64,000 bases of DNA from Candidatus Nealsonbacteria bacterium (lineage in GTDB: Bacteria > Patescibacteriota > Minisyncoccia > Minisyncoccales > MHMH01), in the NCBI GenBank assembly GCA_016188865.1, contig JACPGX010000001.1, positions 141,197 through 205,196 on the forward strand, read 5' to 3'. The position numbers and the translations under genes were made by a program. This document shows, one piece after another, positions 4,597 through 35,489 of the stretch. The notes below the pieces were generated by a model, which made no database searches, was not told the origin of the DNA, and saw nothing but the letters and a program-made list of their open reading frames with translations. Positions within the stretch are counted from its first letter, which is position 1; each line of letters opens with the position of its first letter.

Positions 4597-6075
4597 TTAA
4601 TTGCTGAGGTTCATTTCCAGCCAGCTTGAAAAAAAATTAATAATAATTTTAATCCTCTTAAACAGTTTTTTCCAGCCGTCAACCGTAATAAGAGATTTAA
4701 GCCCAAATCTAACAAGACGCCAAAACCCGTGCCCAAATTGGAAAACAAGAAACTTATAATATTTTTCTATTTCCGCTGAAGTCAATTCTTCGGTATGAAA
4801 ATTAATGTAGCGCCCCGCCGGAGAAAGCTTGTAATAATCCTCGAGATTTTCCAATTTATTATCCAACAAATTGCGTTCTTGGAGATATTGTCTTAATCGA
4901 GAGCCGGGAAGAGGCACAGTAACGTGGAGGCTCACCTCGTCGGGCTTGATCTTCCTTACCAATTGGGCTGACATTTTAATATCTAAAGGCGTTTCTTTGG
5001 GAAAACCCACCATAATAAACATTAAAGATTTAAGGCCGGCCTCTTTAGCTAATCTGAAAGTTCTATAAACGTTCTCTATTGTAATATCCTTATGGATGAC
5101 TTCATCTAAAATCTTCTGGGAGCCCGATTCAACGCCCCACCAAATCCAGGCAAAACCGGCTTCTTTCATTTTTTTCAATGTTTCCAAGTCAATATAGGGA
5201 CTGCAGCGGCCTTGCGTCAAAAACTTCAAATTCAATTTTCTTTTAATGATCTCACTGCAAATATCTTTAACCCACTCATTTTGTTTTGGAGTCATACCGA
5301 CCAATTCGTCATCGTAAAAGGCTACCGATTTGAGCCCAAACTTATTCTTGTAATACTCTATTTCATCTACTATATTTTTAGGATTGCGGGGGCGATAAAG
5401 CTTCGATCCCAAACTACAGAAAGTACACCGGTGCGGACATCCCCGCGAAGCCAATATGGTGATTATCGGCTTTTTGATTTCGTAATGACTCTTGGCGATG
5501 GGCTGACCTGGGTATTTCGAAAAATCGGATGTAAGCAGATGTAAAGCCGGCCAGGGGATGGAATCAATGTCTTTGATATATTCTCGGGTCTTGGTAAGAA
5601 TTAATTTGCCATCCCGTAAAAAAGCTATTCCGGCAATATTTTCTAAATCCTTGATTTTCCCGTCATGCCATTGGACTAATTCCAAAAACGTTATCTCCCC
5701 TTCTCCTAAAACAACGAAATTAATCGCTCCGTCGCTTATTTTCAAAACCTTTTCCGGTTCATTGGTCGGTCCAAACCCTCCGACAACGATCAAGGCTTTG
5801 GGTAAAACCTGCCGAGCTATTTTGGCAGTTTTTATCAGAGCCGGCAACACTATTGAAGTTCCTCCTATCCCGACGATATCGGGATTTTCTCTGGCGAATA
5901 AATCGCCCAAATCCTGCCAGCTCATTTTTTCTATGTCGGCATCAACAACCTTAATGTCAGAATAGCCGTATTTTTCCAGATAACCTGCCAAATAAAGCAA
6001 ACTCAAAGGCGCTGACTCCGATTTACACCTGCCCAAGTCGTTAAAAACCGGCGGGTTAATTAGAAGAATTTTCAT
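4597..6075 (-). CDS. Radical SAM enzyme with cobalamin-binding-type N-terminal domain (class B-like)
   Basis: CxxxCxxC motif in SRGCPHRCTFCS. The N-terminal MKILLINPP...GIGGTS...VVGG flavodoxin-like region matches the B12-binding/radical SAM architecture. Confidence 0.75.
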   Translation of the reverse strand: MKILLINPPVFNDLGRCKSESAPLSLLYLAGYLEKYGYSDIKVVDADIEKMSWQDLGDLFARENPDIVGIGGTSIVLPALIKTAKIARQVLPKALIVVGGFGPTNEPEKVLKISDGAINFVVLGEGEITFLELVQWHDGKIKDLENIAGIAFLRDGKLILTKTREYIKDIDSIPWPALHLLTSDFSKYPGQPIAKSHYEIKKPIITILASRGCPHRCTFCSLGSKLYRPRNPKNIVDEIEYYKNKFGLKSVAFYDDELVGMTPKQNEWVKDICSEIIKRKLNLKFLTQGRCSPYIDLETLKKMKEAGFAWIWWGVESGSQKILDEVIHKDITIENVYRTFRLAKEAGLKSLMFIMVGFPKETPLDIKMSAQLVRKIKPDEVSLHVTVPLPGSRLRQYLQERNLLDNKLENLEDYYKLSPAGRYINFHTEELTSAEIEKYYKFLVFQFGHGFWRLVRFGLKSLITVDGWKKLFKRIKIIINFFSSWLEMNLSN

Positions 6076-6092
6076 ATTAATTTTTATAAAGG

Positions 6093-7319
6093 CTATCTGT
6101 AATTTTCTAAAAAATCCACGAAAGTCTTTTTAAGATATCTAAGGTGTTTTTTTTCCAGACCCTGATGGCATCCGATAAGAAAAGCGTTCTTCATAACCTG
6201 GTTGGCAACTGGATAGCCATTTTCTAATCCCCCGTGTTCAATCTTTTGGAATGCGGGCTGTTTTAGAATGTCACCGGTAAAAACCGGCCTTGTCTGGATG
6301 TTGTTTTCTTCAAGATATTTTGTTAATTCATAACGCGAAAACGGAGCTCCTTCCCTTATCAGAAGCGGAAAGATCAACCAGTTGGTTTTAACTCTCGTGT
6401 CTTGCTTGGGAAGCATAAAAAAGCGTTGATATGGCTTAAAAAAGTTTATCAGTTCAGAAAAATTTGACTGCCGGCGTTTGATAAACCCTTTTAATCTATT
6501 TAATTGCTGAAGTCCGAAAGCGCCGTTCAGTTCAGCTGATTGGAAATTGTATCCAATCTCGCTGAAAATAAACTTGGCATCATATCGCCCTCCTCCCAGC
6601 ATTCCGCTAAATCGCTTTTTAATATCCTCGGATTTTTCATAAGTACCAAAAAGAGTTGATTCTCTTCCCCAGCTGCTCATAACCAGCGCCCTCCTTGCCA
6701 ATTGGGGATCATTGAAACAAACCATGCCCCCTGCCCCGGCTGTAGTAATAATGTGGGAAGCATAAAAACTGGTTACGGAAATGTCGGTGTAGTATCCTGT
6801 TGGTTTACCTTTAAATGTAGCTCCGATGGTATCGCATGAGTCCTCAATAAGGTATAACTTGTGTTTTCTGGCGATCTCTTGAAGCCGAGATAAATCAGGA
6901 ATATTTCCAATAAGGGAAGGAATCATAAGGGCCTTGGTCTTTTTGGTGATCAAAGATTCTATCTGGTCAATATTTGCCAAATACGTTCCCTCTTTTACGT
7001 CAACAAAAACGGGTATCAGCCCCTTCTGAACAATGGGGGCCACTGTTGTTGCAAAGGTTAAAATAGGAGTAATCACCTCCGAACCTCTGGGCAAATCGAG
7101 AACCGACAGGGCAAGGAGGTTGGCCGAAGATCCCGAATTTACCATTACCCCATACTTCTTGCTGAAAAGACGCGCTATTCTGCGCTCAAATTCTTTAACG
7201 GCATTACCGGGAGCAATTCTGGTGGGATTGCTCAAAACTTCGTTAACTGCCCGTATTTCTGGCTTGCCGAAAACAGCTAAGGCAGTTGGTACCCGAAGTT
7301 TTGTTTGTGTTTTTTTCAT
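6093..7319 (-). CDS. DegT-family PMP-type NDP-4-keto-6-deoxyhexose 3-dehydratase-like enzyme (RfbH/ColD type)
   Basis: SFYASHIITTAGAGG aligns with SFYATKNITCCEGG of the neighbouring aminotransferases. His replaces the catalytic Lys, as in the E1/ColD dehydratases. Confidence 0.6.
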   Translation of the reverse strand: MKKTQTKLRVPTALAVFGKPEIRAVNEVLSNPTRIAPGNAVKEFERRIARLFSKKYGVMVNSGSSANLLALSVLDLPRGSEVITPILTFATTVAPIVQKGLIPVFVDVKEGTYLANIDQIESLITKKTKALMIPSLIGNIPDLSRLQEIARKHKLYLIEDSCDTIGATFKGKPTGYYTDISVTSFYASHIITTAGAGGMVCFNDPQLARRALVMSSWGRESTLFGTYEKSEDIKKRFSGMLGGGRYDAKFIFSEIGYNFQSAELNGAFGLQQLNRLKGFIKRRQSNFSELINFFKPYQRFFMLPKQDTRVKTNWLIFPLLIREGAPFSRYELTKYLEENNIQTRPVFTGDILKQPAFQKIEHGGLENGYPVANQVMKNAFLIGCHQGLEKKHLRYLKKTFVDFLENYR

Positions 7320-7385
7320 ATATTTATTAATTAATTATATACCTATTATCTTATTATGCTCCTCAAAAAAATCAAGTTAAAATAA

Positions 7386-8519
7386 TTATAATTTGATTAC
7401 ATCTAAAACATTGGCGATAATAAAATCAACTTCCTTATTCGTTAATTTCGGATAAAAAGGCAGGGTGATGGTTTTTTCTGAAATCGCTTCGGCCACGGGG
7501 AAATCACCCGGTTTATAGCCATACCTTTTCCGATAATAAGTCATTAGGTGGACAGCCGGCCAATAATTAACAACATTTGCCACGCCTCTTTTCTGAAGCT
7601 CCTCTCTGATTTGAGATCGTTTTCCGGAATCAACCCAAATAGTAAAAAGATGGCGAGCGTGTTTAACTCCGTCCAAGGTCTTCGGCAAATTGATGCCGGG
7701 AACATTTTGAAAGGCTTTTGTATATCTTTTGCAAATTTCCTCCCTTCTCCGCCAAAGTTTTTCAATGCGTGAGAGTTGGCCGGCTAAAAGGGATGCCTGG
7801 ATATTATTCATGTTGTATTTCCAACCATAAAAGGCCATATCGGAATGGGTAAATTTTTTTTCATAGCGTTCGTAAGCCGACTGCTCTAAGCCGTGAAGCC
7901 TTGTCTTTTTCAAAAGAGAAGCGGTCTTTTCATTGTTCAGGGAGATGGCGCCTCCCTCCCCGCAGGTTATATTTTTAGTGGCATAAAAACTGAAACAAGC
8001 GGCATCGCTCAACTGGCCCACTCTTGCGCCGTCTCTTGCCCCCTCCATGCAATGAGCAGCATCCTCTATAACTTTCAATTTGTGCTTATCGGCAATCTTT
8101 CTTATTTTTTTCATGTCAGCCATCTGCCCGTATAAATGCACCGGCAGTATCGCCTTAGTTTTTTTGGTAATAGCCCTCTCAATCAAGTCGGCGTTAATAT
8201 TGCCGGTTTCTTCTTCTACGTCAACGAATACAGGATCGGCCCCCGTATGCAAAATGGCATTGCTGGTAGCAACAAAAGTAAGAGGCGTAGTGATAACCTC
8301 GTCTCCCAAACCCACGCCAAAAGCCTCTAGGGCCAAGTGCATGGAAGCCGTGCAAGATGTAGTGCCTACGGCGTATTTGCAGCCGAGATACCCGGCAAAG
8401 GAATTTTCAAAATCGGCCACGTTTTTGCCGGTGGAAAGAAAAATGCCTTTTAAAACCTTTGCGATGTTTTTTATGTCTTGTTCGGAAATATTATGCCTAT
8501 AAAATTCTATGTGAGTCAT
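7386..8519 (-). CDS. DegT/DnrJ/EryC1/StrS-family PLP-dependent sugar aminotransferase (paralogue 2)
   Basis: MTHIEFYRHNISEQDI..., GDEVITTPLTFVATSNAI, SFYATKNITCGEGG. By eye about two-thirds to three-quarters identical to 3462-4592. Confidence 0.85.
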   Translation of the reverse strand: MTHIEFYRHNISEQDIKNIAKVLKGIFLSTGKNVADFENSFAGYLGCKYAVGTTSCTASMHLALEAFGVGLGDEVITTPLTFVATSNAILHTGADPVFVDVEEETGNINADLIERAITKKTKAILPVHLYGQMADMKKIRKIADKHKLKVIEDAAHCMEGARDGARVGQLSDAACFSFYATKNITCGEGGAISLNNEKTASLLKKTRLHGLEQSAYERYEKKFTHSDMAFYGWKYNMNNIQASLLAGQLSRIEKLWRRREEICKRYTKAFQNVPGINLPKTLDGVKHARHLFTIWVDSGKRSQIREELQKRGVANVVNYWPAVHLMTYYRKRYGYKPGDFPVAEAISEKTITLPFYPKLTNKEVDFIIANVLDVIKL

Positions 8520-9550
8520 ATCAATGCAGTTTTAGTTTTTTGCTGCTCCATTAAATGAAGATGCCATTTATCGTTATAATGTATTATATTTTGGGCAATA
8601 TCCGGAGATTTTTCCAAATGTTCCCAAATTTCAAAAACGATTTCTTCCAAAGAACGACTCGGAGTAAACTGGAATGTTTCTTTGAATAAAGTATTGTCCG
8701 CTTTATAATTGCGGCTAATATTCACCGGCCTGGTATTGATTCCGATATCGATTCCTTTGTTTTTTTTCACTATTTCTTTAACCTTTTCGGCTAATACTCC
8801 GGCATTCCAATTGTCGCTGCTGATGTTAAAGATCTTGCCGCCGATTTTTTCCAAAGGCAATTCCAAGGCTTTGGCATAAGCCGAGATGACATCATGGATA
8901 TCGATTATCGGCCTCCAAACCTGGCCGCCCGCATCCACGGTAAGCAATTGCTTGGAAAAAGCATCTTTGGTAAAAGCATTTAATATCAAATCGAATCTCA
9001 TTCTTGGCGACCAGCCGCAAACGGTGCCTTTCCTGAAGATTGTCGGCTGGAAACTGTCATCAGCTATTTCCAAAAGGGCTTGCTCGGCCGATCTCTTGGA
9101 AAGCGAATAAGCGGAAATCGGATTGATATTATCAGTTTCTTTGCTGGGAGCGGGGTCGGGAGGAGTATTATAGGTGAAGTAAACGGAGCAGGAAGAAGAG
9201 AAAATAAATCTTTTTATGCCTCTTTCCTTGGCAAATCTGGCCAACCTTTCCGTGGCCAGATGATTCAATAAATCGGTGTATCTCGGATTATACTGGGAAA
9301 CCGGCTCGGTAGAAAAGCCGGCCAGATGAATCACTCCGTCAATGCCGTCTAAAATTTCAGAGCCGACAGTGCAGACATCTCCTTTAATTAATTCAATCCG
9401 GTTCAGGATTTCTTTTATGGGCTCATCGGTAAAAATCAGCTGGTCCAAAACCCTGACTTTATATCCTTTCTCCAGCAGGGTTTTTACTAAAACGCTTCCT
9501 ATGTAGCCTGCTCCGCCTGTTACCAGAATTTTTTGATTTTTTTCTGACAT
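8516..9550 (-). CDS. NAD-dependent sugar epimerase/dehydratase (extended SDR)
   Basis: Rossmann motif ILVTGGAGYIGS and YxxxK in YSLSKRSAE. 4-nt overlap with the upstream gene. Confidence 0.8.
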   Translation of the reverse strand: MSEKNQKILVTGGAGYIGSVLVKTLLEKGYKVRVLDQLIFTDEPIKEILNRIELIKGDVCTVGSEILDGIDGVIHLAGFSTEPVSQYNPRYTDLLNHLATERLARFAKERGIKRFIFSSSCSVYFTYNTPPDPAPSKETDNINPISAYSLSKRSAEQALLEIADDSFQPTIFRKGTVCGWSPRMRFDLILNAFTKDAFSKQLLTVDAGGQVWRPIIDIHDVISAYAKALELPLEKIGGKIFNISSDNWNAGVLAEKVKEIVKKNKGIDIGINTRPVNISRNYKADNTLFKETFQFTPSRSLEEIVFEIWEHLEKSPDIAQNIIHYNDKWHLHLMEQQKTKTALI

Positions 9551-9556: not shown

Positions 9557-10213
9557 TTAAATTGATTTTAATTCTAAAAATAAGTTACCCTTGGGATTTC
9601 CTTTCGGTCCATAAAACCAGTTATCCTTTATGCCTTCCACTCTGTATTTGGCTTGACTTATGTCAAAATTGCTTTTTTTAAACATTTCAATCCACCATCC
9701 TGAAGGTTGTCTTATAATGTGAGAGGGATCTTTTTCATAGGCGGGAATGATGAAGTGCTCCTCAAAACCTACCGGCACCACAACAAACCACCTGTCTGCC
9801 AAGCTTCTCATTTCTGCAAGCACCGATTTTAAAAAATCTTCGTTTGCGAAAGAGTGCTCCAAAACATCTTTCGTAAAGCCAATATCGTAATGTCCGTCTG
9901 CCAAAAGAGAAACATACTGTTTTATTTCTGGGTCGGCATTTTCAATAGCATACTTGCTGATATCAACTCCGTAAGCCTGATAACCCATTCTTCTTAATGC
10001 TTTAACGAAAAAACCCTTGGCGCAGCCATAATCTATGATGGTTTCTGTCTTTTTGGGATTCATTTCACTTACAAATGCTTTTGCCGCCCTAAGGGTCGTT
10101 TTCGGCATCCAATGATAATTTGTATACATGGATTTGCCGGTTTCAATTCCCCTTTCAAAATAATCACCGTCAAACATTTTGGCTAATTTTTGTTTGGTGT
10201 ATTTCGTTTCCAT
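9557..10213 (-). CDS. Class I SAM-dependent methyltransferase
   Basis: Motif I-like IIDYGCAKGFFVKALRRMGYQAYGVDIS. Confidence 0.7.
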   Translation of the reverse strand: METKYTKQKLAKMFDGDYFERGIETGKSMYTNYHWMPKTTLRAAKAFVSEMNPKKTETIIDYGCAKGFFVKALRRMGYQAYGVDISKYAIENADPEIKQYVSLLADGHYDIGFTKDVLEHSFANEDFLKSVLAEMRSLADRWFVVVPVGFEEHFIIPAYEKDPSHIIRQPSGWWIEMFKKSNFDISQAKYRVEGIKDNWFYGPKGNPKGNLFLELKSI

Positions 10214-10222: not shown

Positions 10223-11224
10223 TTAAGAAAAATCTTTATCGTCAACCTCTTTCAGCAGGGAATATAAAATCTGGTTCTGTTTGGCATACTTGCAGTAAGA
10301 ACAAGCGTGATGAAATACCTGAAAATTATTTTTATAATAATTTTCTATCTCGCTTGCATGGCAAACTCTAAACTTTGTCTGCATGGTTCTATTGTTCTCA
10401 ATGGCCAGCTCTGACGAAGGACAGGCATAAACATAGCCGTCGGTGTATAAGAACGGTTTCCACATGTGCATCAAGCAAGCGTTATCTTCCCTGTCGAATA
10501 AATAAACATTGAAGTCCGAAAGATAAATATATTCGTGATTTTCGTATTTTTCAAGCTCTTTTTTGATTTGATTTATCTGGTTTTTTATGGCTTCCTTGGT
10601 TTGGATGCAATCCGGCGCCAATCTTGAAAGAATTTTATGCTTATTCGTAAATTCTATAACCCTGCCGATATTCTTGCATCCTATTTCTTGGGATACTATA
10701 TAACAAGCGGTGATTTTTGTTTTATCTTGCAGGTATTTTACGTTTTCCTCAAATTTTTTAATGCGGGCCTCGTCATCGCCGTCAAAAACATTCAAGGCAA
10801 CCCTGACCCACTGGAATTTTCCCCAATTTTCTTCCTTAACGTTGTCGATAGACAAGGCATTGGTATTCATGCCCAATTTCATTTTCTTTTCAGCTACGTA
10901 TTCTGTGGCCTCATTGATGTAATGATACAGGGTTGGCTCGCCTCCGCCCGTCCATTCAACAGCCCTAATCCCTAAATTGTAGCTCTGATCCAAGGCGCTC
11001 TTTAGCAATCCAAAATCCAAACTTATCGTTCTTTCTCTTTCGCTAAAACAGCAATGCGCGCAGTTTTGATTGCAAACATTAGTTGGAGCTATATGAATCA
11101 TTACCGGACTTACTCTCCCCTGCTGAATGGCTGCCATTTTATCAAGATGTTTAAACATTTTAACCTCATTTGAGGTCACGCTGTATATAGGAGGCGCTTT
11201 AAATGATTTTTCTATCTTAACCAT
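10223..11224 (-). CDS. Radical SAM enzyme
   Basis: CxxxCxxC in IAPTNVCNQNCAHCCF, followed by a GGGEPT-type motif (WTGGGEPTLY). Confidence 0.75.
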   Translation of the reverse strand: MVKIEKSFKAPPIYSVTSNEVKMFKHLDKMAAIQQGRVSPVMIHIAPTNVCNQNCAHCCFSERERTISLDFGLLKSALDQSYNLGIRAVEWTGGGEPTLYHYINEATEYVAEKKMKLGMNTNALSIDNVKEENWGKFQWVRVALNVFDGDDEARIKKFEENVKYLQDKTKITACYIVSQEIGCKNIGRVIEFTNKHKILSRLAPDCIQTKEAIKNQINQIKKELEKYENHEYIYLSDFNVYLFDREDNACLMHMWKPFLYTDGYVYACPSSELAIENNRTMQTKFRVCHASEIENYYKNNFQVFHHACSYCKYAKQNQILYSLLKEVDDKDFS

Positions 11225-11225: not shown

Positions 11226-11951
11226 TTACTTCAAAAACCTTTTATTATTCTCGTGCCACTTGCTGTAAAGCTCGAGGAAAAAATTAATAGTCCTTGTGGT
11301 CTCAAGATGACCCGCCATTATCTTAAAAATAGATGGGGGAGCGGTCACAATGTGGGCACCGGCTAAAAAGCAATCAACCACGTCTTTGGGAGTCTTGATG
11401 CTGCCAACGATAATTTCCGTTTTGTTTCCTTCCAGTAATTTACGGCTATTGCGAATAACGGCAAAGGGATCTCCTCCCAGCTCTTTGATATGGCCGCAGA
11501 AAATCGAAAAATAAGCGGGGTTGGTGGAAGCGGCCATTGCCACTTGGGCTTCATTCATGCCCACTGTCACGTTAACCTTAATACCCGCGTCTTCAAGTTT
11601 TTTAATGATGCCCACTTCTCCCCAGCCGATAGGTACTTTAATGTTTAAATTATTATAATTAATCTGCTGGACGAATTCCTTGGCCTGCTCAAACATTTTT
11701 TCGGGGTCGGTTTCCGTAACCATTATGCTTATTGGCACCTCCTGACCGTATTTCTTGCATAATTCAGCCATTTTCTTAACATGATTCACGTAATCAACTT
11801 TCGGGCTTAAGGTCGGCATGGGTTCTTGGGCTATGATAACCGGGTTTGTGGTAATGCCTGACATAATTCCCAGCTTTAAGCCGTCTTCCAGCTCATTCAG
11901 GTTGGCCGTGTCCCAAAATAGCTTTGGATATTGTTTTTGAGAATTGCTCAT
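11226..11951 (-). CDS. Transaldolase / fructose-6-phosphate aldolase family protein (class I aldolase)
   Basis: FWDTANLNELEDG...GITTNPVI and NIKVPIGWGE (Schiff-base Lys context) match the short TalC/FSA-type transaldolases. Confidence 0.75.
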   Translation of the reverse strand: MSNSQKQYPKLFWDTANLNELEDGLKLGIMSGITTNPVIIAQEPMPTLSPKVDYVNHVKKMAELCKKYGQEVPISIMVTETDPEKMFEQAKEFVQQINYNNLNIKVPIGWGEVGIIKKLEDAGIKVNVTVGMNEAQVAMAASTNPAYFSIFCGHIKELGGDPFAVIRNSRKLLEGNKTEIIVGSIKTPKDVVDCFLAGAHIVTAPPSIFKIMAGHLETTRTINFFLELYSKWHENNKRFLK

Positions 11952-11958
11952 AGTATTT

Positions 11959-12735
11959 TTAATTATTATTAATTTTAATTCTTTCTTTTAATTCCGGCAT
12001 TTCAGCAAATTCGCTTTCTACTATAAAGCTGTCCGAATCTTCGTCGTGGGTGGAAGATTCAATTATCACGGGATTGTCCAGACCAGCGGCCTGATGCATC
12101 AACCCCGGAGTAATTTTAATCGTCTGGCCCGGCTCTAACACGTAATATCTGTCTTCGGCATTGTCAGCCCTCAAGCGCAGCAATAATTTACCCGAATGCA
12201 TAAAATAAGTTTCCGTCTTTTTGCAGTGGAAGTGCAAACCGTGGTGATTGCCGGTCTTGAAAAATATCTTCTTGCCGGTAAAGTCCCGATTAATAATCGT
12301 TTCTATTGAATTTTCGGCGTAATCCTTGTGGCGGATATCAAAAGTGGTTGCCTTTTTGATTGTTTTTTCTCTGTCTTTTTGAGGCCAACCGAAAAAAACG
12401 TAAAGAATGCTGTCTTTTCTCGTCTCTATGTTAGAATAATTGGGAAAAGCGCCCAAGGGCAAAAATAAAGTGTCTTCCGGAACCAAATTATATGCTCCTG
12501 CTTGAATTTCGCCTGATTCCAAATAAAATAATACTTCTCTGCCTTGATAATCTTTTGAATCTAAAATAGCGATTTTCCTCTGGCCAATAATAATCTGATC
12601 CATACCATAAATTTCTTCATTAACCGCTCGGCAAAAATAACCCCATGGCTTTTCCTGACGTTCGGGTTTAGAAATCTGCTTTTCAATATCGTCAAAACTA
12701 TAACCGTATTTATAAAGTTGTTTTTGCTGCGGCAT
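11959..12735 (-). CDS. Bicupin protein, type II phosphomannose-isomerase-like
   Basis: EKPWGYF (the RPWGxY-like motif of ManC-type cupin isomerases) and a second cupin core HHGLHFHCKKTETYFMHSGKLLLRL. Confidence 0.5.
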   Translation of the reverse strand: MPQQKQLYKYGYSFDDIEKQISKPERQEKPWGYFCRAVNEEIYGMDQIIIGQRKIAILDSKDYQGREVLFYLESGEIQAGAYNLVPEDTLFLPLGAFPNYSNIETRKDSILYVFFGWPQKDREKTIKKATTFDIRHKDYAENSIETIINRDFTGKKIFFKTGNHHGLHFHCKKTETYFMHSGKLLLRLRADNAEDRYYVLEPGQTIKITPGLMHQAAGLDNPVIIESSTHDEDSDSFIVESEFAEMPELKERIKINNN

Positions 12736-26513: not shown

Positions 26514-27395
26514 TTATATTATCTTCTTTTCCTTAAATTCCCCTATCACTGATTTTATCCCCTCTTTAATATTAGTCTTGGGATTAAACGATAAAACTTC
26601 TTTTGCTTTTTTAGGGTCGGCATAACACTTATTCGTGCTGTAGGAGGGGCCAGTAATATATTTAATCTTACTTTTGCTTTTTAATTCCTTAACAATTATT
26701 TTAGCTAAATCTTTTAAATAAACTGGCTTGCCGAAAGAGAGAATAAAATCGTCATGCAATTTTTGCGACTTTTCTACTTCTTGCATGCATTTCCAAATGC
26801 CATCTAAAATATCATCTATGTGAGTGAAATCAAATATCTCATGACCTGTCCCATAAATAGTCAGGGTGTCATTTTTTGCGGCTAAAATAATAAATTTTGG
26901 AATTATTCTCTGCAATTTATCGTCTTGCCCCCCATAAACGCTGGTAAAACGGAGAATCCTCGTTTTCAAACCGTAACTTTCTGAATAAGCTCTGCATAAT
27001 TCTTCTCCGGCAAATTTAGTTATTCCATAAATACTCACTGGTTTTCTGGGAGTCTTTTCGGTTATGGGAAGAATTTTAGCTTGACCAAATACCTCTCTAG
27101 AGGAAATGAAAATTACCCAGGGACATCCTGCCTGCCTTGCTGCCTCCAAAATATTAGCGGTTCCCCCTATATTTATATTTACACAACCTAGGGGATTATC
27201 AAAGGTTGATTTTGGCTGACTCATGGCAGCTAAGTGCACGATTCCCGTCGCTCCTTTCATTTTAGATTTTAAATTTTTAAAATTTAGTATATTATCCTTC
27301 TGATCGTAAGAAATTGCTTGAACTCTTTTTTTTTCTAAAAAATTCTTGAGAGAGCTGCCGATAAAGCCGGAACTCCCTGTAAGCAAAATTTTCAT
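26514..27395 (-). CDS. NAD(P)-dependent sugar epimerase/reductase (extended SDR)
   Basis: MKILLTGSSGFIGSSL and YxxxK in YGITKFAGE. Confidence 0.75.
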   Translation of the reverse strand: MKILLTGSSGFIGSSLKNFLEKKRVQAISYDQKDNILNFKNLKSKMKGATGIVHLAAMSQPKSTFDNPLGCVNINIGGTANILEAARQAGCPWVIFISSREVFGQAKILPITEKTPRKPVSIYGITKFAGEELCRAYSESYGLKTRILRFTSVYGGQDDKLQRIIPKFIILAAKNDTLTIYGTGHEIFDFTHIDDILDGIWKCMQEVEKSQKLHDDFILSFGKPVYLKDLAKIIVKELKSKSKIKYITGPSYSTNKCYADPKKAKEVLSFNPKTNIKEGIKSVIGEFKEKKII

Positions 27396-28402
27396 AGGTT
27401 AATCCATCTTTTATTTTGGTCGATTACCATCCATTTTATCATTTTGTCAAAACTTTCTTCGAAAGACAGCTTAGCTTCCCAGCCTAATTCTTTCGCCTTG
27501 GTCCCATCGAGGGCATATCTTTTATCATGCCCCGGCCGGGCTGTATGAAATTCGATATATTCTATCTCGTCTTTCAGGAGCGGCCTCCCCTTAATAATTT
27601 GGGAAATTCTGTTTGCCAGATCCAGAACGTTTCTTTCTTCCCCCTTAATGTTATAAATTTCTTTAGAATGTCCCTTATCCATTAAAAAAATTAAAAAGTC
27701 GGCAACATTCCTGGCGTGGATCCAACAACGCGAGCTTAATTCACTCTCCGAGCCATGAATAATGACTTTTTTATTCTCTAAAATAGCTTTGACTGTCTTG
27801 GGAATGAATTTCTCCGGATATTGCCTCTCCCCGAAAACATTCATGCATCTGGTAATAATAACGGGGATGCCAAAAGCATGCGCAAATGAATAAGCCATCA
27901 TATCGGCCCCAGCCTTTGAGGCAGAGTAAGGATTAGAGGGCCTTAAATGAGCGTCTTCGGTATAAAATATGCCGTCGGGAGCTGCGCCATAAACTTCATC
28001 TGTCGAAAATTGAATAAATTTTTTTAAATTCGGCTGATGACATTTTACGTGCTCCAGCAAATTGGCTGTTCCTAGAACATTATTGGTGACAAAAGGAATG
28101 GCATCCTCCAGGCTTTTATCAATATGACTTTCAGCAGCCAAATGCCAGATATAATCAACCGGGCCGATCATTTTATTGGTGGTTTCCGAAATTGGAGATT
28201 TCAAATCATGCCAAATAAATTTAACTCTGTGTTTTTGGCTTTCCCATGGACCGATGTCTGTCAGTTTGTTCAGATTTCCGGCATAAGTCAAACTATCCAA
28301 ACCAATCACATTCCAATCGGTCTGCTTGAGTACGCCCTCCAAAATGTGGTGGCCGATAAAACCGGCCATTCCGGTGATTAAAACTGTTTTTTTATTATCC
28401 AT
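27392..28402 (-). CDS. Second NDP-hexose 4,6-dehydratase-like SDR
   Basis: VLITGMAGFIGHHI, LDSLTYAGNLNKL, HLAAESHIDKS and YSASKAGADMMAYSF (RmlB-like). Confidence 0.7.
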   Translation of the reverse strand: MDNKKTVLITGMAGFIGHHILEGVLKQTDWNVIGLDSLTYAGNLNKLTDIGPWESQKHRVKFIWHDLKSPISETTNKMIGPVDYIWHLAAESHIDKSLEDAIPFVTNNVLGTANLLEHVKCHQPNLKKFIQFSTDEVYGAAPDGIFYTEDAHLRPSNPYSASKAGADMMAYSFAHAFGIPVIITRCMNVFGERQYPEKFIPKTVKAILENKKVIIHGSESELSSRCWIHARNVADFLIFLMDKGHSKEIYNIKGEERNVLDLANRISQIIKGRPLLKDEIEYIEFHTARPGHDKRYALDGTKAKELGWEAKLSFEESFDKMIKWMVIDQNKRWINL

Positions 28403-28787
28403 AAAAATTATACTTTACAGTATCTTCCGGCTTAAAACGCTTCTTTGAAAATTCAATGGCGTGGCCAGCCTTAATGGTTTTAAGCCTATGAGCGAATTTT
28501 GGAGGGATTGAAATGAGGTCTCCGTCTTTCACCTTGATTTTTTCTATTACTCCGGTATCTGAATCAACCATTTCCATTTCCATTATCCCCCGAATAATAT
28601 AAAAATATTCGTGGCGGGTATGGTAATGCCCGCCCCTGGTTTTTCCTTTAGGAAATTCAATGTAAGCAATATGCCTGATGGGTTCCGGCGAATTATATAT
28701 TTCAGCCAGCTCGCCTTTTTCAAGAAAAATCCTCTTCGGCTCCCATATTTTGACCTTTCCCCTAAATAACTTCTTCACTAAACCCAT
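28395..28787 (-). CDS. Small cupin protein (NDP-sugar isomerase/epimerase candidate)
   Basis: 130 aa. Cupin core GGHYHTRHEYFYIIRGIMEM...PPKFAHRL. Confidence 0.5.
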   Translation of the reverse strand: MGLVKKLFRGKVKIWEPKRIFLEKGELAEIYNSPEPIRHIAYIEFPKGKTRGGHYHTRHEYFYIIRGIMEMEMVDSDTGVIEKIKVKDGDLISIPPKFAHRLKTIKAGHAIEFSKKRFKPEDTVKYNFYG

Positions 28788-29875: not shown

Positions 29876-30955
29876 CTAACGATTGAGTAAAAAATTATAG
29901 ATTATATCCACGAAAAGTATTTTTTGGTTTACTGAAACGAAAAAATAATTTAAAACTATGACAGCCGAGATAACTAAAACCATCGCCCATGGTTTTATTT
30001 TTTTAAAGCCGTGGCTGGCAAGCAATATTCCCAGAGGAGCAAAGATAAAAACTGCTCTGGCGCTGCCGGTCGTTGACCAGACAAAAAAAGAAAATGAAGC
30101 CGGCAGCAGGGCCAAATATATTTTAATTCTTTCCCAATTTCTCTCCCGCCACTCTTTTGTGATTCCCATAAAAATGAAAATCCAGAGAATTCCCAGAATC
30201 CTGAATAATTGGCCAAAGTATCTTAACAACGACAGAAAAATGCTTTCCCCGCGGCTGCCCGGCGGATTTCTTAAGTACCAATCCAAAGAAGTGTAATTAA
30301 AATAATGGTAGACAAAAACCTGTATTACTATAGTGGGGATTAAAAACAATGTCCCGAAGTAAATCAATTTTTTAATCTTTTCTTTGGCGCTGAATTCTTT
30401 TGAAAGAAAAATCATCAAGCCGAAAAACAAAATTCCCAATCCCCCGTTTTCTTTTATAAGAACGGCCAGCCCGGATATTAGAGCATTTACGGTGATTAAC
30501 CAATCCTCTCTTCTTTTAAAATAAAGCAGAGTTAAAAATATGGAGAACAAATAGAAAAACCAGGCTCCTGTGTCAGTCAAATAAGCCAATCCTGATTCAA
30601 TCACCGGGGTGGCCGTAACAAAAAACAAAGAGGCGAAAAATGCCTGCTTTTTGTCGTGATAAATTATTTCAACAATTTTAAATACGAGAAAGGCGCAGAG
30701 CAGATAAAAAAATATGTTTTGGACTACCAGTCCGGCTCCTTCTCCCAAAAATTCAAAAGGCAGAGCCAAGAAGGGTCCCAGGGGCCTCAAAATTCTAGCC
30801 ATTTCGGCTTGACCCCCCTCCCCCTGCAACCAATTGATTAAAGCAATGTTTTCGCCTGTGTCCCCGTATTTTTGCGGCCCGAAAATACCAAAAACAGCTC
30901 CCATGTTCAAAAGAGCAAAAATTATAGCTAAGATTAAAAATTTGCGGGTTTTCAT
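29876..30955 (-). CDS. Polytopic membrane protein (GT-C-like / glycan polymerase candidate)
   Basis: 359 aa with about 10 hydrophobic segments, inside the glycan island. Confidence 0.4.
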   Translation of the reverse strand: MKTRKFLILAIIFALLNMGAVFGIFGPQKYGDTGENIALINWLQGEGGQAEMARILRPLGPFLALPFEFLGEGAGLVVQNIFFYLLCAFLVFKIVEIIYHDKKQAFFASLFFVTATPVIESGLAYLTDTGAWFFYLFSIFLTLLYFKRREDWLITVNALISGLAVLIKENGGLGILFFGLMIFLSKEFSAKEKIKKLIYFGTLFLIPTIVIQVFVYHYFNYTSLDWYLRNPPGSRGESIFLSLLRYFGQLFRILGILWIFIFMGITKEWRERNWERIKIYLALLPASFSFFVWSTTGSARAVFIFAPLGILLASHGFKKIKPWAMVLVISAVIVLNYFFVSVNQKILFVDIIYNFLLNR

Positions 30956-32347
30956 TTAAGAGATTAATTTATAAATGGGCCTGCCTTCTTCTGAATTGCC
31001 AATAAATTCGGCCTTCTTAAAACAAGAATTTTCAATAATAAAATTAACAAATTGATCCGGGGCATAACTCTTGTAAAATGGCCTGGAGCCGAATTCTTTC
31101 GGCAAATAAGACTCAAAAAACAATTCCCTAACCTTGAGTTTTTGCAAAAATTTAATCAGATTTGAATAACTATCCTTACTTTCCAGAAAATGATGGAAAA
31201 TGCTTAAAGCCAATACCACGTCAAAAACTACCTCCTGATTACTTTTGTATTCAAAGAGTGATTCGGGGATTATCTCAAATCTTCTGTTTTCTGCTTTTTT
31301 TAATTTTCTTAAGAAATAAAGGCACATTCGATTTTCTTCTAAAGCGTAGCAATGGAATCCCTCCTCTTCGAATTTATGGCAGAAATATCCCAAATTAGCT
31401 CCGATATCCAGCAGGGTTTTATTTTCCAGAGAAAGATTGTCTTTAATTATTTTAAAGCGCAAATCTTCCCTGCGATGCGGTATATCCTGCAAGTCGGGAT
31501 GCGTCAAGGGCTGGTAAAGCTGTCCCCCTTGATAATTTTTGGAAAAAGTAATCAATTCTCTTTTGAAATTCATCCATTCAGCATGGCGAGCGATAATTCT
31601 GACTGGAATTTCGGGAATATTAAGCAGCTTGGCTATGGCAAGCCTATGCCTTCCGTCAATAAACAAAAGTTGCCCGGTTCTCCCTACGGCAACGGACACA
31701 TCATCTAAAACAGCTGAAGATTTTTCCAATTTACCAAGCCATCCTTCTGGAGAATGAAGTTCTTCCTTGGATTTGTACCCGTTCTTCTTTATCCGGCTAT
31801 ACAGTAAATCTATATTCTTGAATCTCTCATCCAGCTCTTCTTTATTTTTGCACCCCCTGTTTACTTCCCCATTTGCTATATAACCGAGAATTCTTTTGTA
31901 AAACTCTGTCTCTTCCCATTTTTTACCCTCAAGAAATCTCTGCTGAATCGCCTTATATGAATCTAATTCTTCAAACTTGGGACCGAGCTTATCCCAGTCT
32001 CCCGCCAATATTTTTCCGTAATTACGCCACTTGTTAAACGGCGCACTCAAACAAAATTCTATTTTTTGCGGACTGACCAAATAAATTTTATCTAAATCCG
32101 GAGCATTGCTTCCGTAATCAATTTTAGCCTTTATTTTCAATGCTCTTTTTTCTGTTATAAATTTTAAGGCGCAAAGCAGCCTCCAAACCGCAACCAGTGG
32201 TTTTCCGATAATGGGAAACCTCTTTTCCAAACGGAAAATAAACTGCCTGGCGCTGAAAATAATTTTATTTTTTATTTTTCTCAAGAAAGCAATTCTCATA
32301 AATCTTCTGGGCTCGTTTCTGCCAAGTAAATTCCTTGACGTCTTCAA
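30956..32347 (-). CDS. Fusion: ParB/sulfiredoxin-like nucleotide-binding domain plus class I SAM methyltransferase
   Basis: LLFIDGRHRLAIAKLLNIPEIPVRII fits the ParB-N/Srx DGxHR pattern. It is followed by LLDIGANLGYFCHKFEEEGFHCYALE (methyltransferase motif I). The start is uncertain because the ORF overlaps the upstream gene by 83 nt. Confidence 0.55.
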   Translation of the reverse strand: MKTSRNLLGRNEPRRFMRIAFLRKIKNKIIFSARQFIFRLEKRFPIIGKPLVAVWRLLCALKFITEKRALKIKAKIDYGSNAPDLDKIYLVSPQKIEFCLSAPFNKWRNYGKILAGDWDKLGPKFEELDSYKAIQQRFLEGKKWEETEFYKRILGYIANGEVNRGCKNKEELDERFKNIDLLYSRIKKNGYKSKEELHSPEGWLGKLEKSSAVLDDVSVAVGRTGQLLFIDGRHRLAIAKLLNIPEIPVRIIARHAEWMNFKRELITFSKNYQGGQLYQPLTHPDLQDIPHRREDLRFKIIKDNLSLENKTLLDIGANLGYFCHKFEEEGFHCYALEENRMCLYFLRKLKKAENRRFEIIPESLFEYKSNQEVVFDVVLALSIFHHFLESKDSYSNLIKFLQKLKVRELFFESYLPKEFGSRPFYKSYAPDQFVNFIIENSCFKKAEFIGNSEEGRPIYKLIS

Positions 32348-33386
32348 AGGCTTTCGCTAAAATTTTATCAGATAAATTATGATCCTGCAAAACAATTTTA
32401 ATGCCCTCAGCCAACTTTTCCGGACTATCTGGTTCCACTAAAACCGCATTATCTTCGTTTAAAACTTCTCTTATCGAAGGCAGGTCAGAGGCAACGATTG
32501 GTATTCCAGAAGCCATATATTCAAACATTTTTAGCGGCGAAGTCCACTTTCTGGAGATCTCTTCTTTGCCGGAATTCGGCAAAACCAAAACATCAGCCGC
32601 TTGCAGCCAAAGAGGAATCTCTGGATATGGCCGATGACCAACTACATTTAAATTTTTAATTTTAAATTTTTCTACATCTTCTTTGGTGCCACCCACGAAA
32701 TAAACATCGACATTTTCTGGCAAATACTGCGAAGCTTCAGAGAGGGTTTGGACTCCTTTCCACTCGTACAAATGACCGGCATACAGCACTATTTTTTTAT
32801 CCAACGGCAAATTTAGCATTCGTCTGGTTTCGGATTTCGTGCTTCGGATTTCGAATTTCGTTAAGTCTACTCCATCCGGAGCTACTAAAATTTTTTCCGG
32901 ACTAATCCCATTCTTAACAAACAAATTTTTAAGTCCATGAGTTATAACTACCATTCCCTTCAATTTTTTCAAAAATGGAAAATATAAAAAATAACGTTTA
33001 GGAAAGGTATGGGCTTCAAAAATAATATTTTTTTTAAAAAAACTAAAGGGCAGAAGAAACTTGTCTCGGCTGTAAATTATATCGGCTTTTTTAAAAATTA
33101 TATAAATTAAGGCTGGGAAGAAAAAAGTCAAACCCTCCAGCCATAATCCAAAATGGCCGATATGCTTATGGAAACGAATCAAATCTAAACACGGAAGTTT
33201 TTTTATCCTAAAAGTTTCGGCTATCCCGTAATAATCAAAGGGTCTCTCCTTAATCCAGTTATACCTCTCCGGGACAACCAGCTCCACATTTGATTCTTTA
33301 GCCAATGCTTCGCACATTTTCATTACCTGAATACCATGAGCTTTTTCCGTGGGGATTCTGCTGTTTGTAATGTAGAGCAATGTCAT
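32265..33386 (-). CDS. Glycosyltransferase, GT4-like
   Basis: GVDLTKF...KKIVLYAGHLYEWKGV and FEYMASGIPIVASD (EX7E region). Confidence 0.8.
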   Translation of the reverse strand: MTLLYITNSRIPTEKAHGIQVMKMCEALAKESNVELVVPERYNWIKERPFDYYGIAETFRIKKLPCLDLIRFHKHIGHFGLWLEGLTFFFPALIYIIFKKADIIYSRDKFLLPFSFFKKNIIFEAHTFPKRYFLYFPFLKKLKGMVVITHGLKNLFVKNGISPEKILVAPDGVDLTKFEIRSTKSETRRMLNLPLDKKIVLYAGHLYEWKGVQTLSEASQYLPENVDVYFVGGTKEDVEKFKIKNLNVVGHRPYPEIPLWLQAADVLVLPNSGKEEISRKWTSPLKMFEYMASGIPIVASDLPSIREVLNEDNAVLVEPDSPEKLAEGIKIVLQDHNLSDKILAKAFEDVKEFTWQKRAQKIYENCFLEKNKK

Positions 33387-34480
33387 AATAAAACTTCTAA
33401 TTTTCTAATATTTTCTTTAATATCGTATTTTTGAGCTGTTACTTTGCAATTTTCAGAGAAATAAGCCTGCCCCCTGCCTGCAATTTCCTGCATTTTCCGA
33501 GAAACATCTTCTTTATCCCCTTCAACCAGATATCCATTCAGGCCGTCAATAACGTACTCGTCGGGGCCGGCTACCTTAGTTGAAACCACAGGCAAACCCA
33601 AGGACATGGCCTCAATGCAAGCAATAGCGAATCCTTCAATTTTTGAGGTAAGAACAAAAAATTCAGAAATAAACATATACTCAAAAACGTTTTTCTTGCG
33701 GCCCAGCAAAAATATTTTATCTTCTAAATTTAATTCTTTTACGTACCCGGTCAAAAAATCCAACATCGGTCCCTGGCCCAAAATAATTAATTTATAGCCG
33801 CTGTTTCTTTTAATAAATTCGGCGAAGCCGTCAATCAATAATTTATGATTTTTTTGCGGCCACAATTTTGCCACGTTAATTATGAATTTATCTTCTTTTT
33901 TAAAGCCGAGTTTTTCCTTCAGATCGTCCTTGTTATAATTTTTAATCTTTGCCTGTATATCACTATAATCTATGGCGTCGGGAATAACCGCAAATTTATT
34001 TTGATTGATTTTTTCCTGATCTGCCGTAAACAGTTTAACTGTTTCCGATACGGCGACTATTTTGTAGGTGAAATAAGAAAAAATTTTGTCAGCCATTATT
34101 TGCCATTTCTTTTTTTTAGTATAAGTATTGTGCTCATAAATAATAACTTTATAACCAAAAAATGGCTTCAAGGCCCTTAAAACCGTATTGCTAAAAAACA
34201 AATTAGATAAAATGATATCTGGCCTATACTCCCTCAAAATACGGCAGGTTTCCAGCCAGTTTTTAATGTCGCAAAAACCCTTAAAATTCAATCTATAGTT
34301 TTTAAGATTTCCCGGGAGTAAATCAAAAAAATTATTATCATCTTTGGGCTGGAAAAAACTCAATAAGGCGAGCTCGTATTTGTTTCTATCAAGATTATTA
34401 ATTATGTCGGCTGCCAATTTAGGAGCTCCAGACATATCAAATTCCGTAATGCCTACCAATAATTTAATTTTTGGATTCAT
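33383..34480 (-). CDS. Glycosyltransferase, GT4-like
   Basis: GFAIACIEAMSLGLPVVSTKVAGPDEYV and the typical two-domain length. Confidence 0.75.
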   Translation of the reverse strand: MNPKIKLLVGITEFDMSGAPKLAADIINNLDRNKYELALLSFFQPKDDNNFFDLLPGNLKNYRLNFKGFCDIKNWLETCRILREYRPDIILSNLFFSNTVLRALKPFFGYKVIIYEHNTYTKKKKWQIMADKIFSYFTYKIVAVSETVKLFTADQEKINQNKFAVIPDAIDYSDIQAKIKNYNKDDLKEKLGFKKEDKFIINVAKLWPQKNHKLLIDGFAEFIKRNSGYKLIILGQGPMLDFLTGYVKELNLEDKIFLLGRKKNVFEYMFISEFFVLTSKIEGFAIACIEAMSLGLPVVSTKVAGPDEYVIDGLNGYLVEGDKEDVSRKMQEIAGRGQAYFSENCKVTAQKYDIKENIRKLEVLL

Positions 34481-35489
34481 ATATAGAACAAGTTTTACAC
34501 AAAGGATACCCTCTTTTTTGGGCTATTTTGCGTCTTTCTCTGACGACTGGATCAAACCAAATATCTTTTAATTTCTGCGATAAAACATTGCCGTAAAAAT
34601 ATCGACCGTTTAAGTCATAACAGCACATCGACACTGACCCGTCTGCCAAAACTACCAAATGTGACTTGGCCAAGGGACATTTATCGGGGGGATTTTTTAT
34701 TTTCAGTTTGCCATCTTCTTTTTTGTATCTTACGGACCTGTCGTTTTCTGACTTGTCAGGAAAAAACTTTCTAGATAATTCCTCTCTTTCTTTTTCGGAA
34801 TAAGCATACTCTCCCAGATTAAAAGATCTTATGGAGAGTCTGTCGACTTTTAAATCTTTTGCTATTTTTTTGACATCTTCCAACTCATTTTGATTTAATT
34901 TATTAAAAACAAACTGCAATTCAATAAACGGTCTTCTCAGCTTTAGGGCCTGCTTCTGTCGGCAGAAATAAGTAATATTGCCCAAAACCTGCTCGAAATT
35001 GGCTCCCACTCTAAATTGCTCATAAGATTCCTTGGAGGTTCCATCTAAATCAAGAATGATCCTGTCTAATTTTGAACGAAATAAATCATTCGTCATCTCC
35101 CTATTCAGCAAAACCGCATTAGTGCTTATTTCAGTATATAAGCCATTTTGGTGGGCATACCCTGCCATTCTAGAAATATCGGGGTTGAGCAAGGGCTCAT
35201 TGGTAAAATATAAAAGTACGACCTGTACCGAATCTTTGATGTTATCAATGACTTTTTTGAAATTATCGAAAGACATCAGTTCTCTTTTTCTGCAGATTTT
35301 ACCGGCTGGCGTAGGGCAGGTGGGGCATCGCAAATTACAATAATTCCCCACCTCAATCAGGGCAGCATAGGGATGCCCAAAAAGCCGATATTTAATATTG
35401 GCTTTTATAAAATGCCATGGCTTAGAAAAATTTCTTTCTAATATATTGATTAAAATATGCTTCTTAAAAGCCGGGTAAATGCGATTCAT
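34464..35489 (-). CDS. Radical SAM enzyme with Cys-rich C-terminal (SPASM-like) extension
   Basis: CxxxCxxC in VGNYCNLRCPTCPT. C-terminal cysteines occur in CPLAKSH...SMCCYD...PLCKTCSIY. Confidence 0.7.
   Translation of the reverse strand: MNRIYPAFKKHILINILERNFSKPWHFIKANIKYRLFGHPYAALIEVGNYCNLRCPTCPTPAGKICRKRELMSFDNFKKVIDNIKDSVQVVLLYFTNEPLLNPDISRMAGYAHQNGLYTEISTNAVLLNREMTNDLFRSKLDRIILDLDGTSKESYEQFRVGANFEQVLGNITYFCRQKQALKLRRPFIELQFVFNKLNQNELEDVKKIAKDLKVDRLSIRSFNLGEYAYSEKEREELSRKFFPDKSENDRSVRYKKEDGKLKIKNPPDKCPLAKSHLVVLADGSVSMCCYDLNGRYFYGNVLSQKLKDIWFDPVVRERRKIAQKRGYPLCKTCSIYESKN

Follow-up and report, generated by a model that had tools for sequence, protein, structure and literature searches.

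Why would a bacterium of the candidate phyla radiation (CPR), whose cells have very small genomes and lack lipopolysaccharide (LPS), carry five radical S-adenosylmethionine (SAM) enzymes in a single run of sugar genes? The question is posed by 64,000 nucleotides of contig JACPGX010000001.1 (forward-strand positions 141,197 to 205,196; assembly GCA_016188865.1), the whole stretch analysed here and hereafter called the window, from Candidatus Nealsonbacteria, a lineage of the Parcubacteria/Patescibacteria (CPR) group. Its proteins are NCBI entries MBI2450049 to MBI2450105. An initial annotation had pointed to five CxxxCxxC proteins, three of them with B12-type domains, within a glycan island at 4597-35489, and had taken their class to imply C-branched or C-methylated sugars. 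Our analysis favours, with a probability of roughly 0.7, the reading that the five genes encode dedicated sugar-tailoring radical SAM enzymes of a CPR surface-glycan island built from co-transcribed modules. Gene content, gene order, tight spacing and conservation are direct observations on the DNA; the chemistry that we attach to them is proposed.

We checked 48 open reading frames (ORFs) of the window for the CxxxCxxC motif, which occurs in exactly five of them, once in each, against a chance expectation of 0.02 calculated from cysteine frequency. All five lie on the minus strand. We refer to them as R1 (4597..6075, 492 residues, CPHRCTFC at C213), R2 (10223..11224, 333 residues, motif at C51), R3 (15541..16845, 434 residues, CPYQCTYC at C159), R4 (20385..21812, 475 residues, CPFACIFC at C207) and R5 (34464..35489, 341 residues, motif at C51). 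Each passes the Pfam Radical_SAM cut-off (PF04055, 29.5 bits), with scores of 81, 42, 70, 91 and 64 bits for R1 to R5, respectively. R1, R3 and R4 also pass the B12-binding cut-off (PF02310, 32.1 bits) with 59, 46 and 77 bits and have the class-B architecture of an N-terminal B12-binding Rossmann domain followed by a radical SAM core, R3 being a divergent member. R5 belongs to the SPASM family (PF13186, 48 bits against a cut-off of 21.5), while Pfam recognised only Radical_SAM in R2 and found no SPASM domain there. The five proteins and the three B12-type domains are thus where the initial annotation placed them; what it had missed was the CPR host, the conserved partner gene of each enzyme and the SPASM/twitch-type nature of R5 and, probably, of R2.

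We compared the five with 18,950 NCBIfam models, and not one curated cut-off was attained. The best scores were 194 bits for R1 with BchE (cut-off 481), 215 for R4 with HpnJ (578), 92 for R3 with PhpK (600), 116 for R5 with a tungsten-maturase model (380) and 39 for R2 with ScmF (400). Models for housekeeping radical SAM enzymes (HemN/HemZ, MoaA, NrdG and MiaB/RimO) all scored 53 bits or less against cut-offs of 131 to 1007. Since no curated cut-off was reached, none of the five is a housekeeping enzyme, and the coproporphyrinogen oxidase-like or MoaA-like identity that the initial annotation had weighed against its own proposal was not found. R1, R3 and R4 are distant paralogues of one another (23-29% identical). 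The five enzymes are uncharacterised variants of known radical SAM classes in an unusual setting.

That setting is made of sugar genes. Pfam and NCBIfam scans bore out the interleaving described by the initial annotation, the radical SAM genes being interspersed with five DegT-type pyridoxal phosphate (PLP) enzymes, seven short-chain dehydrogenase/reductase (SDR) epimerases or dehydratases, of which two resemble dTDP-glucose 4,6-dehydratase, four or more class I methyltransferases, some nine family 4 glycosyltransferases (GT4), three of family GT2, a single GT9 and two to three membrane proteins of GT-C-like type. Around every radical SAM gene the neighbours run on one strand, with gaps of 1-17 nt or overlaps of 4-17 nt, and the gene order is kept at ∼80% identity in other metagenomes (our comparison loci L177, L001-L004 and L174/L175). 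The glycan island is as described in kind but not in extent: rather than ending at 4597 and 35489 it reaches from before position 1 to ∼47.7 kb (at least 47 kb), minus-strand genes being near-continuous from the left edge of the window to ∼46.5 kb. Because the leftmost ORF (1-1370, minus strand), a fusion of a GT2 with a zinc alcohol-dehydrogenase-like domain, is truncated by that edge, the island extends past the window. A fusion of the same type, 616 residues long, directly follows the R1 homologue of locus L173. Leftward extension through metagenome contigs yielded only short Logan contigs, all stopping at the same point. As the host is a CPR bacterium, we ruled out an LPS or O-antigen locus, including the possibility of a Leptospira rfb locus; the product is probably a glycan of S-layer, protein-linked or wall-polymer type.

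The most novel element of the island is a pair of genes associated with heptose. R2 is followed on the minus strand by a class I SAM methyltransferase, MT9 (9557..10213, 218 residues; Pfam Methyltransf_23/31/11, with the SAM motif DYGCAKG), and the same order, R2 then an MT9 homologue, is found in three distant metagenomic loci (L009, L010 and L011). Across 33 aligned family members (alignment A2) C51, C55, C58 and C59 are invariant, as are C250, C268, C288, C308 and C311 of a five-cysteine, SPASM/twitch-like C-terminal domain. An AlphaFold2 (AF2) model of R2, with a predicted local distance difference test (pLDDT) score of 90.8, has SuiB as its nearest fold, followed by DesII, CteB, viperin-like enzymes, BlsE, BtrN and SpeY; anSME is also among the matches. 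The NCBI entry for R2 (MBI2450054) has 311 residues; the 333-residue ORF adds an N-terminal S-x-T-S-N-x-x-K-x-x-K-H (residues 15-26) that is conserved in the family, and the start chosen in the NCBI entry probably lies too far downstream.

Homologues of R2 are also present on at least 125 IMG/VR viral contigs with G+C contents from 27% to 59%. In the 80 viral loci whose neighbours we counted (L091-L170) an MT9 homologue is present in 75 and adjacent to R2 in 65. Most of the R2-bearing contigs come from genuine phages, as shown by genes such as those for DnaB and a virion structural protein (phrog_1645, 515 bits), and they share a conserved block of two glycosyltransferase-like proteins, R2, MT9 and a TylF-like methyltransferase, often with a nucleotidyltransferase-kinase fusion. 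The pair occurs in an isolated phage as well: in Synechococcus phage SynMITS9220M01 (L204; MT408532.1, 167225-168956) the annotated heptose 7-phosphate kinase, phosphoheptose isomerase and ADP-heptose epimerase are followed by two unnamed ORFs, the R2 and MT9 homologues (the gp210/gp211 pair) and a glycosyltransferase, the R2 homologue being annotated as 'hypothetical protein'. Pelagibacter phage HTVC008M gave a weaker match. No PHROG represents an R2-type radical SAM enzyme. We make no claim that the family is rare; a word-indexed protein search returned 73 proteins, an undercount given that IMG/VR alone holds at least 125 loci.

In the window the genes upstream of R2 form a putative nucleoside diphosphate (NDP)-heptose supply cassette (11226..14347, minus strand). 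It comprises an FSA/transaldolase (11226-11951; FSA 119 bits, below cut-off; Pfam TAL_FSA), a cupin with a weak Pfam Lyx_isomer match that may be an isomerase (11959-12735), an HldE domain-I-like kinase (12743-13681; rfaE_dom_I 151 bits against 345; Pfam PfkB) and an HldE domain-II-like adenylyltransferase (13689-14096; rfaE_dom_II 145 bits against 181.5), and also includes an excisionase-type helix-turn-helix gene (14090-14347). A SIS-type GmhA is not present; the cupin stands in its place, whereas locus L173 has SIS and PfkB genes at the same position. The cassette recurs in L177, L178 and L180 and, in part, in viral locus L097. We infer that R2 is a sugar C-H-activating SPASM/twitch-type enzyme acting on a heptose nucleotide, with MT9 methylating its product.

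R2 can be compared with DesII, BtrN, SpeY, BlsE and HygY/NeoN, a set that R2 and R5 match by fold or sequence and whose members all abstract hydrogen from a sugar or cyclitol carbon; the conserved C-terminal cysteines of R2 also resemble those of an auxiliary-cluster domain. The likeness is distant, however, with identities of 10-18% and template modelling (TM) scores of ∼0.4-0.6, and the C-terminal domain of R2 is unrecognised by Pfam. Moreover, none of these enzymes has the methyltransferase partner and heptose context that R2 has. R5, for its part, overlaps GT4 genes on both sides and has C-terminal cysteines at 271, 289, 290, 331 and 334. Its sequence matches solved structures of GDGT-MAS, CteB, BtrN, PqqE, DesII and BlsE, and weakly SuiB; its family numbers 761 cluster representatives at E≤1e-30, and further glycan islands also contain R5-like SPASM genes, which there adjoin GT9 or class-B genes. 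Both R2 and R5 are likely to oxidise, dehydrate or epimerise their substrates, not to alkylate them.

The class-B gene R3 has a glycosyltransferase as its partner. Immediately upstream lies a heptosyltransferase-like GT9 gene (16863..18005, minus strand; Pfam Glyco_transf_9, 69 bits), which scores 87 and 85 bits with the NCBIfam heptosyltransferase II and III models, below cut-off (135 bits for II). In the window GT9 directly precedes R3, as it does in each of the six related loci with upstream sequence (L176, L177, L178, L180, L181 and L183), the two genes overlapping by 4 bp in three of the six, and the heptose cassette adjoins the pair in the window and in three of these loci. Upstream of GT9, and between it and the methyltransferase MT19 described below, is a gene for a polytopic membrane protein (18010..19752, minus strand; 580 residues, at least eight transmembrane-like segments by hydropathy), which matched nothing in Pfam, NCBIfam or PADLOC and is conserved in L177 (778 bits).

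R1 sits in a cassette for amino- and deoxyhexoses (2257..9550, minus strand), between a PseC-like aminotransferase and an RfbH-like PLP enzyme. The cassette contains a GT4 (2257-3465), two PseC-like aminotransferases that are 73% identical (3462-4592 and 7386-8519; NCBIfam PseC 325 and 336 bits), the RfbH-like enzyme, a putative pyridoxamine phosphate (PMP)-dependent 3-dehydrase (6093-7319; RfbH 343 bits against 423), and a GalE-like SDR (8516-9550). That the PseC-like pair flanks R1 and the RfbH-like gene points to a recent tandem duplication within the cassette. The R1 family gave 2411 matches at E≤1e-20, in which Patescibacteria are the dominant group, many of them named. Two relatives, P0474 (682 residues) and P0372 (728 residues; L173, 10001-12187), each end in a fused domain resembling class I methyltransferases, the domain differing between the two. 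A methyltransferase of ∼200 residues directly precedes the R1 homologue in both L172 and L173. These cases suggest that class-B radical SAM enzymes are functionally coupled to conventional methyltransferases.

A second such pair is formed by R4 and MT19 (19749..20381, minus strand; 210 residues, Pfam Methyltransf_23/25/11), a class I methyltransferase gene 3 nt downstream of R4, in an order that is the same in the syntenic loci L177 and L001-L003. MT9 and MT19 have no detectable paralogy (BLASTP, E<1e-5), and the two radical SAM-methyltransferase pairs are therefore independent of each other. The R4 family, in which the GGPH motif, C279 and C300 are invariant (alignment A1), gave 5600 matches at E≤1e-10 and at least 565 confirmed genome stretches. 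Its members lie in glycan loci of CPR bacteria (Daviesbacteria, 64% identity), Omnitrophota, Planctomycetota, Desulfuromonadales, Desulfobaccales, Saganbacteria and DPANN archaea. An R4-like clade, 33-36% identical, is found in dozens of genomes of Bathyarchaeia.

Upstream of R4 lies an Arn/Pgf-like module for polyprenyl-phosphate decoration (21815..28787, minus strand), recognised from Pfam, NCBIfam and hydropathy. It holds two dTDP-glucose 4,6-dehydratase-like SDRs (21815-22909 and 27392-28402), a further SDR (26514-27395), a cupin (28395-28787), a PgfS/ArnC-like GT2 with two transmembrane segments (22842-23774), two small proteins with four transmembrane segments (23798-24205 and 25446-25844; a weak Pfam EamA label comes from L001), a GT-C/PMT_2-like protein (24211-25449) and an AglJ-like GT2 (25811-26509). 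A PgfS/ArnC-like GT2 accompanies R4 in 14 of 32 loci of its closer homologues (mostly ≥40% identity). With the Arn (ArnA-F, ArnT), Pgf and Gtr systems the module shares the GT2 with C-terminal transmembrane helices, the two small four-helix proteins and the GT-C/PMT_2-like transferase, along with an SDR and aminotransferase supply line and a deacetylase. In contrast to those systems it adds a class-B radical SAM enzyme and a methyltransferase, and its host is a monoderm-like CPR cell.

Do the three class-B enzymes have genuine cobalamin domains, and would they use them to methylate sugars? Both the single sequences and the family profiles of R1, R3 and R4 match the same set of solved enzymes, AprD4, QCMT, TokK, OxsB, CysS and TsrM, of which QCMT is a cobalamin-dependent glutamine C-methylase (PDB 9ccb; PMC12931638). 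The N-domains of all three families align to the cobalamin-binding Rossmann domains of TokK, CysS and TsrM, and those of the R1 and R4 families alone also to the cobalamin domain of OxsB, whereas AprD4, which is cobalamin-free (PDB 6fd2), is aligned over the radical SAM core only. The alignment of R4 with TokK includes the GGPH strand and the loop with Ser-Cys that lies beneath the corrin; W76 of TokK corresponds to a proline in the R4 family, and the neighbouring Ser-Cys is common to both. The R3 and R4 families align by hhalign with a probability of 100% from residue 13. On these alignments we take the N-domains of R1, R3 and R4 to have the features of real cobalamin domains, which counters the possibility, raised by the initial annotation, that such features would be lacking. 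Because solved class-B enzymes hold the cofactor base-off without a conserved ligand, the residue below the corrin varying and no motif being diagnostic (PMC12931638), cobalamin binding itself is not provable from sequence. R4 was the class-B enzyme of the island modelled for fold comparison, and the only one. Its AF2 model (pLDDT 91.3) matches QCMT, AprD4, TsrM, OxsB, CysS and TokK about equally well, with TM scores of 0.65-0.75.

GenK and GenD1 (gentamicin) and MoeK5 (moenomycin) are class-B sugar C-methyltransferases that prefer already-glycosylated substrates. Like R1, R3 and R4 they join an N-terminal B12-type Rossmann domain to a radical SAM core and belong to sugar pathways with aminotransferases, dehydratases and glycosyltransferases, and the position of R3 beside a glycosyltransferase gene fits their substrate preference. 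These precedents are listed in PMC12931638. The likeness has its limits, in that the island enzymes fall far below the cut-offs of curated class-B models and belong to a CPR surface-glycan locus rather than an actinomycete antibiotic pathway. By analogy with the three, the likeliest individual reaction for R1, R3 and R4 is cobalamin-dependent methylation of an unactivated sugar carbon, using scavenged cobalamin, and we regard the chances as evenly balanced that at least one of them performs it. The host is unlikely to make its own B12; scavenging would be plausible for epibionts of corrinoid-rich methanogens.

In place of methylation, the class-B enzymes might carry out radical deoxygenation, deamination, epimerisation or ring contraction in the manner of AprD4, DesII or HpnJ, with cobalamin absent or put to another use, an alternative that we consider possible though on balance doubtful. 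AprD4, a 1,2-diol dehydratase acting on the aminosugar paromamine, ranks first or second among the sequence matches of R1, R3 and R4 and is a top fold match for R4, and such chemistry would fit a B12-auxotrophic CPR cell with no B12 genes in the window. Yet its likeness stops at the core, the N-domains resembling instead the true cobalamin domains of TokK, OxsB, CysS and TsrM and keeping a GGPH-type motif, and the AprD4 model (NF033070, cut-off 500 bits) scores no higher than 59 bits with R1, 43 with R3 and 100 with R4. HpnJ, which forms the cyclitol ether of hopanoids, probably by rearrangement of a sugar ring, and BchE are the best-scoring named families for R4 and R1, respectively, and match them over nearly their full length, but the scores of R4 and R1 lie under half of the cut-offs (HpnJ, TIGR03471, 578 bits, and BchE, TIGR02026, 481 bits: R4 215 and 188, R1 148 and 194, R3 78 and 47, respectively), and genes for hopanoids or bacteriochlorophyll are absent from the window. 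Extra cysteines of the kind of C279 and C300, which are invariant in the R4 family, serve as hydrogen donors in radical epimerases, and the position of R1 between aminotransferases and an RfbH-like dehydrase resembles DesI/DesII/DesV logic; against this, the recurrent adjacency or fusion of class I methyltransferases points to methyl-rich products. The proposal of the initial annotation stands for the class-B architecture of three enzymes, but the fold does not imply C-methylation, QCMT and AprD4 being equally similar to R4 in fold and HpnJ and BchE not being methylases.

Other readings dispute the substrate or the role. Characterised SPASM enzymes are mostly peptide maturases, and some of the five, R5 above all, could act on a peptide or protein, such as a glycan-receiving S-layer or surface protein or a peptide made by the ribosome and modified after its synthesis (RiPP). 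R5 indeed matches CteB, PqqE and, weakly, SuiB, the top fold for R2 is SuiB, the protein C-methylase QCMT is a top match for the class-B enzymes, and large surface proteins adjoin the island. However, R5 overlaps GT4 genes on both sides, its relatives recur in glycan islands beside GT9 or class-B genes, both R5 and R2 also match the sugar-acting BtrN, DesII, BlsE and SpeY, and no precursor-peptide ORF or RiPP recognition element is annotated (no search was made for either); we judge a peptide substrate unlikely. That the island makes a secreted aminoglycoside-like natural product is highly improbable. Characterised sugar-acting radical SAM enzymes (GenK, AprD4, BtrN and DesII) come from antibiotic pathways, and the island is rich in aminotransferases, but it also encodes ∼13 glycosyltransferases, a PgfS/ArnC-like GT2, GT-C transferases, flippase-like small proteins, a polysaccharide deacetylase and a FemAB-like protein, and no cyclitol synthase, polyketide or non-ribosomal peptide synthetase or resistance gene was found in the window. 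Least probable of all is that the five are housekeeping or viperin-like anti-phage defence genes that merely sit in the island. Viperin-like folds are among the structural matches of R2, and the PADLOC pVip models match R2 and R5 weakly (31 and 43 bits); these matches go no deeper than the superfamily, the NCBIfam cut-offs for housekeeping equivalogs are not attained, each enzyme is bound to sugar genes by its conserved partner and by synteny, and R2 has a five-cysteine C-terminal domain that, to our knowledge, viperins lack. On the PADLOC scores and the sugar-gene context we rejected a role as prokaryotic viperins.

Several points weigh against our reading of the five genes as dedicated sugar-tailoring enzymes and against its chemistry. 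These four or five families are known from sequence and have no biochemically characterised member. Foldseek with the R4 model does not separate cobalamin-dependent relatives from cobalamin-free AprD4, and the best named families for the class-B enzymes, HpnJ and BchE, are non-methylases. The ORFs scanned contain no cobalamin synthesis or uptake domain, in agreement with the initial annotation, which had seen no biosynthesis genes, and Rfam found no cobalamin riboswitch; CPR genomes are generally regarded as incapable of B12 synthesis. None of the heptose enzymes attains its NCBIfam equivalog cut-off, and no GmhB-type phosphatase was seen in the window, nor was an initiating phosphoglycosyltransferase, Wzx/Wzy or ABC exporter. 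The organism assignment depends on the NCBI label of the metagenome-assembled genome (MAG).

If the five are nonetheless sugar-tailoring enzymes, the modules could work together as follows. The FSA/transaldolase, cupin isomerase, HldE-like kinase and adenylyltransferase would make an NDP-heptose, from which R2 would abstract a hydrogen with its 5'-deoxyadenosyl radical, leading to oxidation, dehydration or epimerisation, and MT9 would methylate the product. GT9 would transfer the heptose, and R3, gene-adjacent and probably translationally coupled in three relatives, might modify the heptose or its acceptor. In the amino-deoxyhexose module the PseC-like aminotransferases and the RfbH-like 3-dehydrase would act with R1. 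The 4,6-dehydratases, R4 and MT19 of the Arn/Pgf-like module would tailor a 6-deoxyhexose, which the PgfS/ArnC-like GT2 may load onto polyprenyl phosphate for the small four-helix proteins to flip and the GT-C protein to attach outside the cell. R5 would act within the GT4 assembly block.

The arrangement is found beyond this genome. In Portnoybacteria a locus of 21 kb carries three class-B enzymes and one SPASM enzyme, other CPR islands have three to four radical SAM enzymes each, the metagenomic locus L009 has four in tandem, and three to six class-B genes stand in tandem in glycan-like loci of Omnitrophota, Planctomycetia and Myxococcota MAGs (L014, L018, L019, L025 and L040) and on a metagenome contig (L198). 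Glycan islands with multiple radical SAM enzymes thus recur in CPR, Omnitrophota, Planctomycetota and DPANN, and the surface-glycan pattern is also seen in Bathyarchaeia. In the literature we found no paper describing such islands. Nearly all characterised radical SAM enzymes that act on sugars belong to antibiotic pathways; here synteny ties four to five uncharacterised families to surface-glycan assembly, in a group of bacteria whose surfaces mediate obligate attachment to their hosts. Through R2 and MT9, common to CPR bacteria and phages, a pair of CPR glycan genes is connected with a pair of auxiliary genes found in many phages. A tentative broader picture is that ultra-small CPR symbionts, probably B12-auxotrophic, may scavenge cobalamin and use it together with at least five radical enzymes to make C-alkylated or rearranged surface heptose and amino-deoxyhexose, with R2 and MT9 performing an undescribed heptose-tailoring chemistry that marine and freshwater phages would share, plausibly to remodel host or virion glycans. 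The locus prompts the question of where a minimal genome gets its cobalamin, and offers defined enzyme-partner pairs: R2 and MT9 with NDP-heptose, GT9 and R3, and R4 and MT19 with the PgfS-like GT2.

The remainder of the island (29876..47713), annotated from Pfam and NCBIfam scans of its ORFs, contains a GT-C-like protein (29876), methyltransferases (30956 and 40777), GT4 genes (32265, 33383, 35486, 36630, 37697, 38628 and 46571 onwards), a DegT-like gene (39728), a FemAB-like gene (41472), a polysaccharide deacetylase (42421), SDRs (43112 and 44095), a truncated UDP-sugar dehydrogenase (45000) and a DUF218 gene (45900). The dehydrogenase ORF (45000-45836) spans only residues 67-318 of a 415-residue homologue, lacks the N-terminal nicotinamide adenine dinucleotide (NAD) motif and the C-terminal domain, and is probably a gene remnant. 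Rfam (at gathering thresholds) and tRNA scans of the whole window returned nothing. Between R3 and the heptose cassette lies a Y1_Tnp gene (REP-associated tyrosine transposase/IS200-like; 14810-15535, and 14397-14885 on the plus strand); as this spot is occupied by a different filler of 2.2 kb in the syntenic locus L177, it is a variable or mobile insertion point in the island.

At the right border two large proteins (47718-49247 and 50519-54796) share a 133-residue segment that is 56% identical. One of the two has a peptidoglycan-binding domain, and the 1425-residue protein has a hydrophobic N-terminal segment and no Pfam match; both are candidate surface or S-layer proteins and might serve as glycan acceptors. 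Beyond them, at 55056-56273, a gene for an extracytoplasmic function (ECF)-type sigma factor is followed by one for a DUF5667 protein, a possible anti-sigma factor, and the two together might regulate envelope genes.

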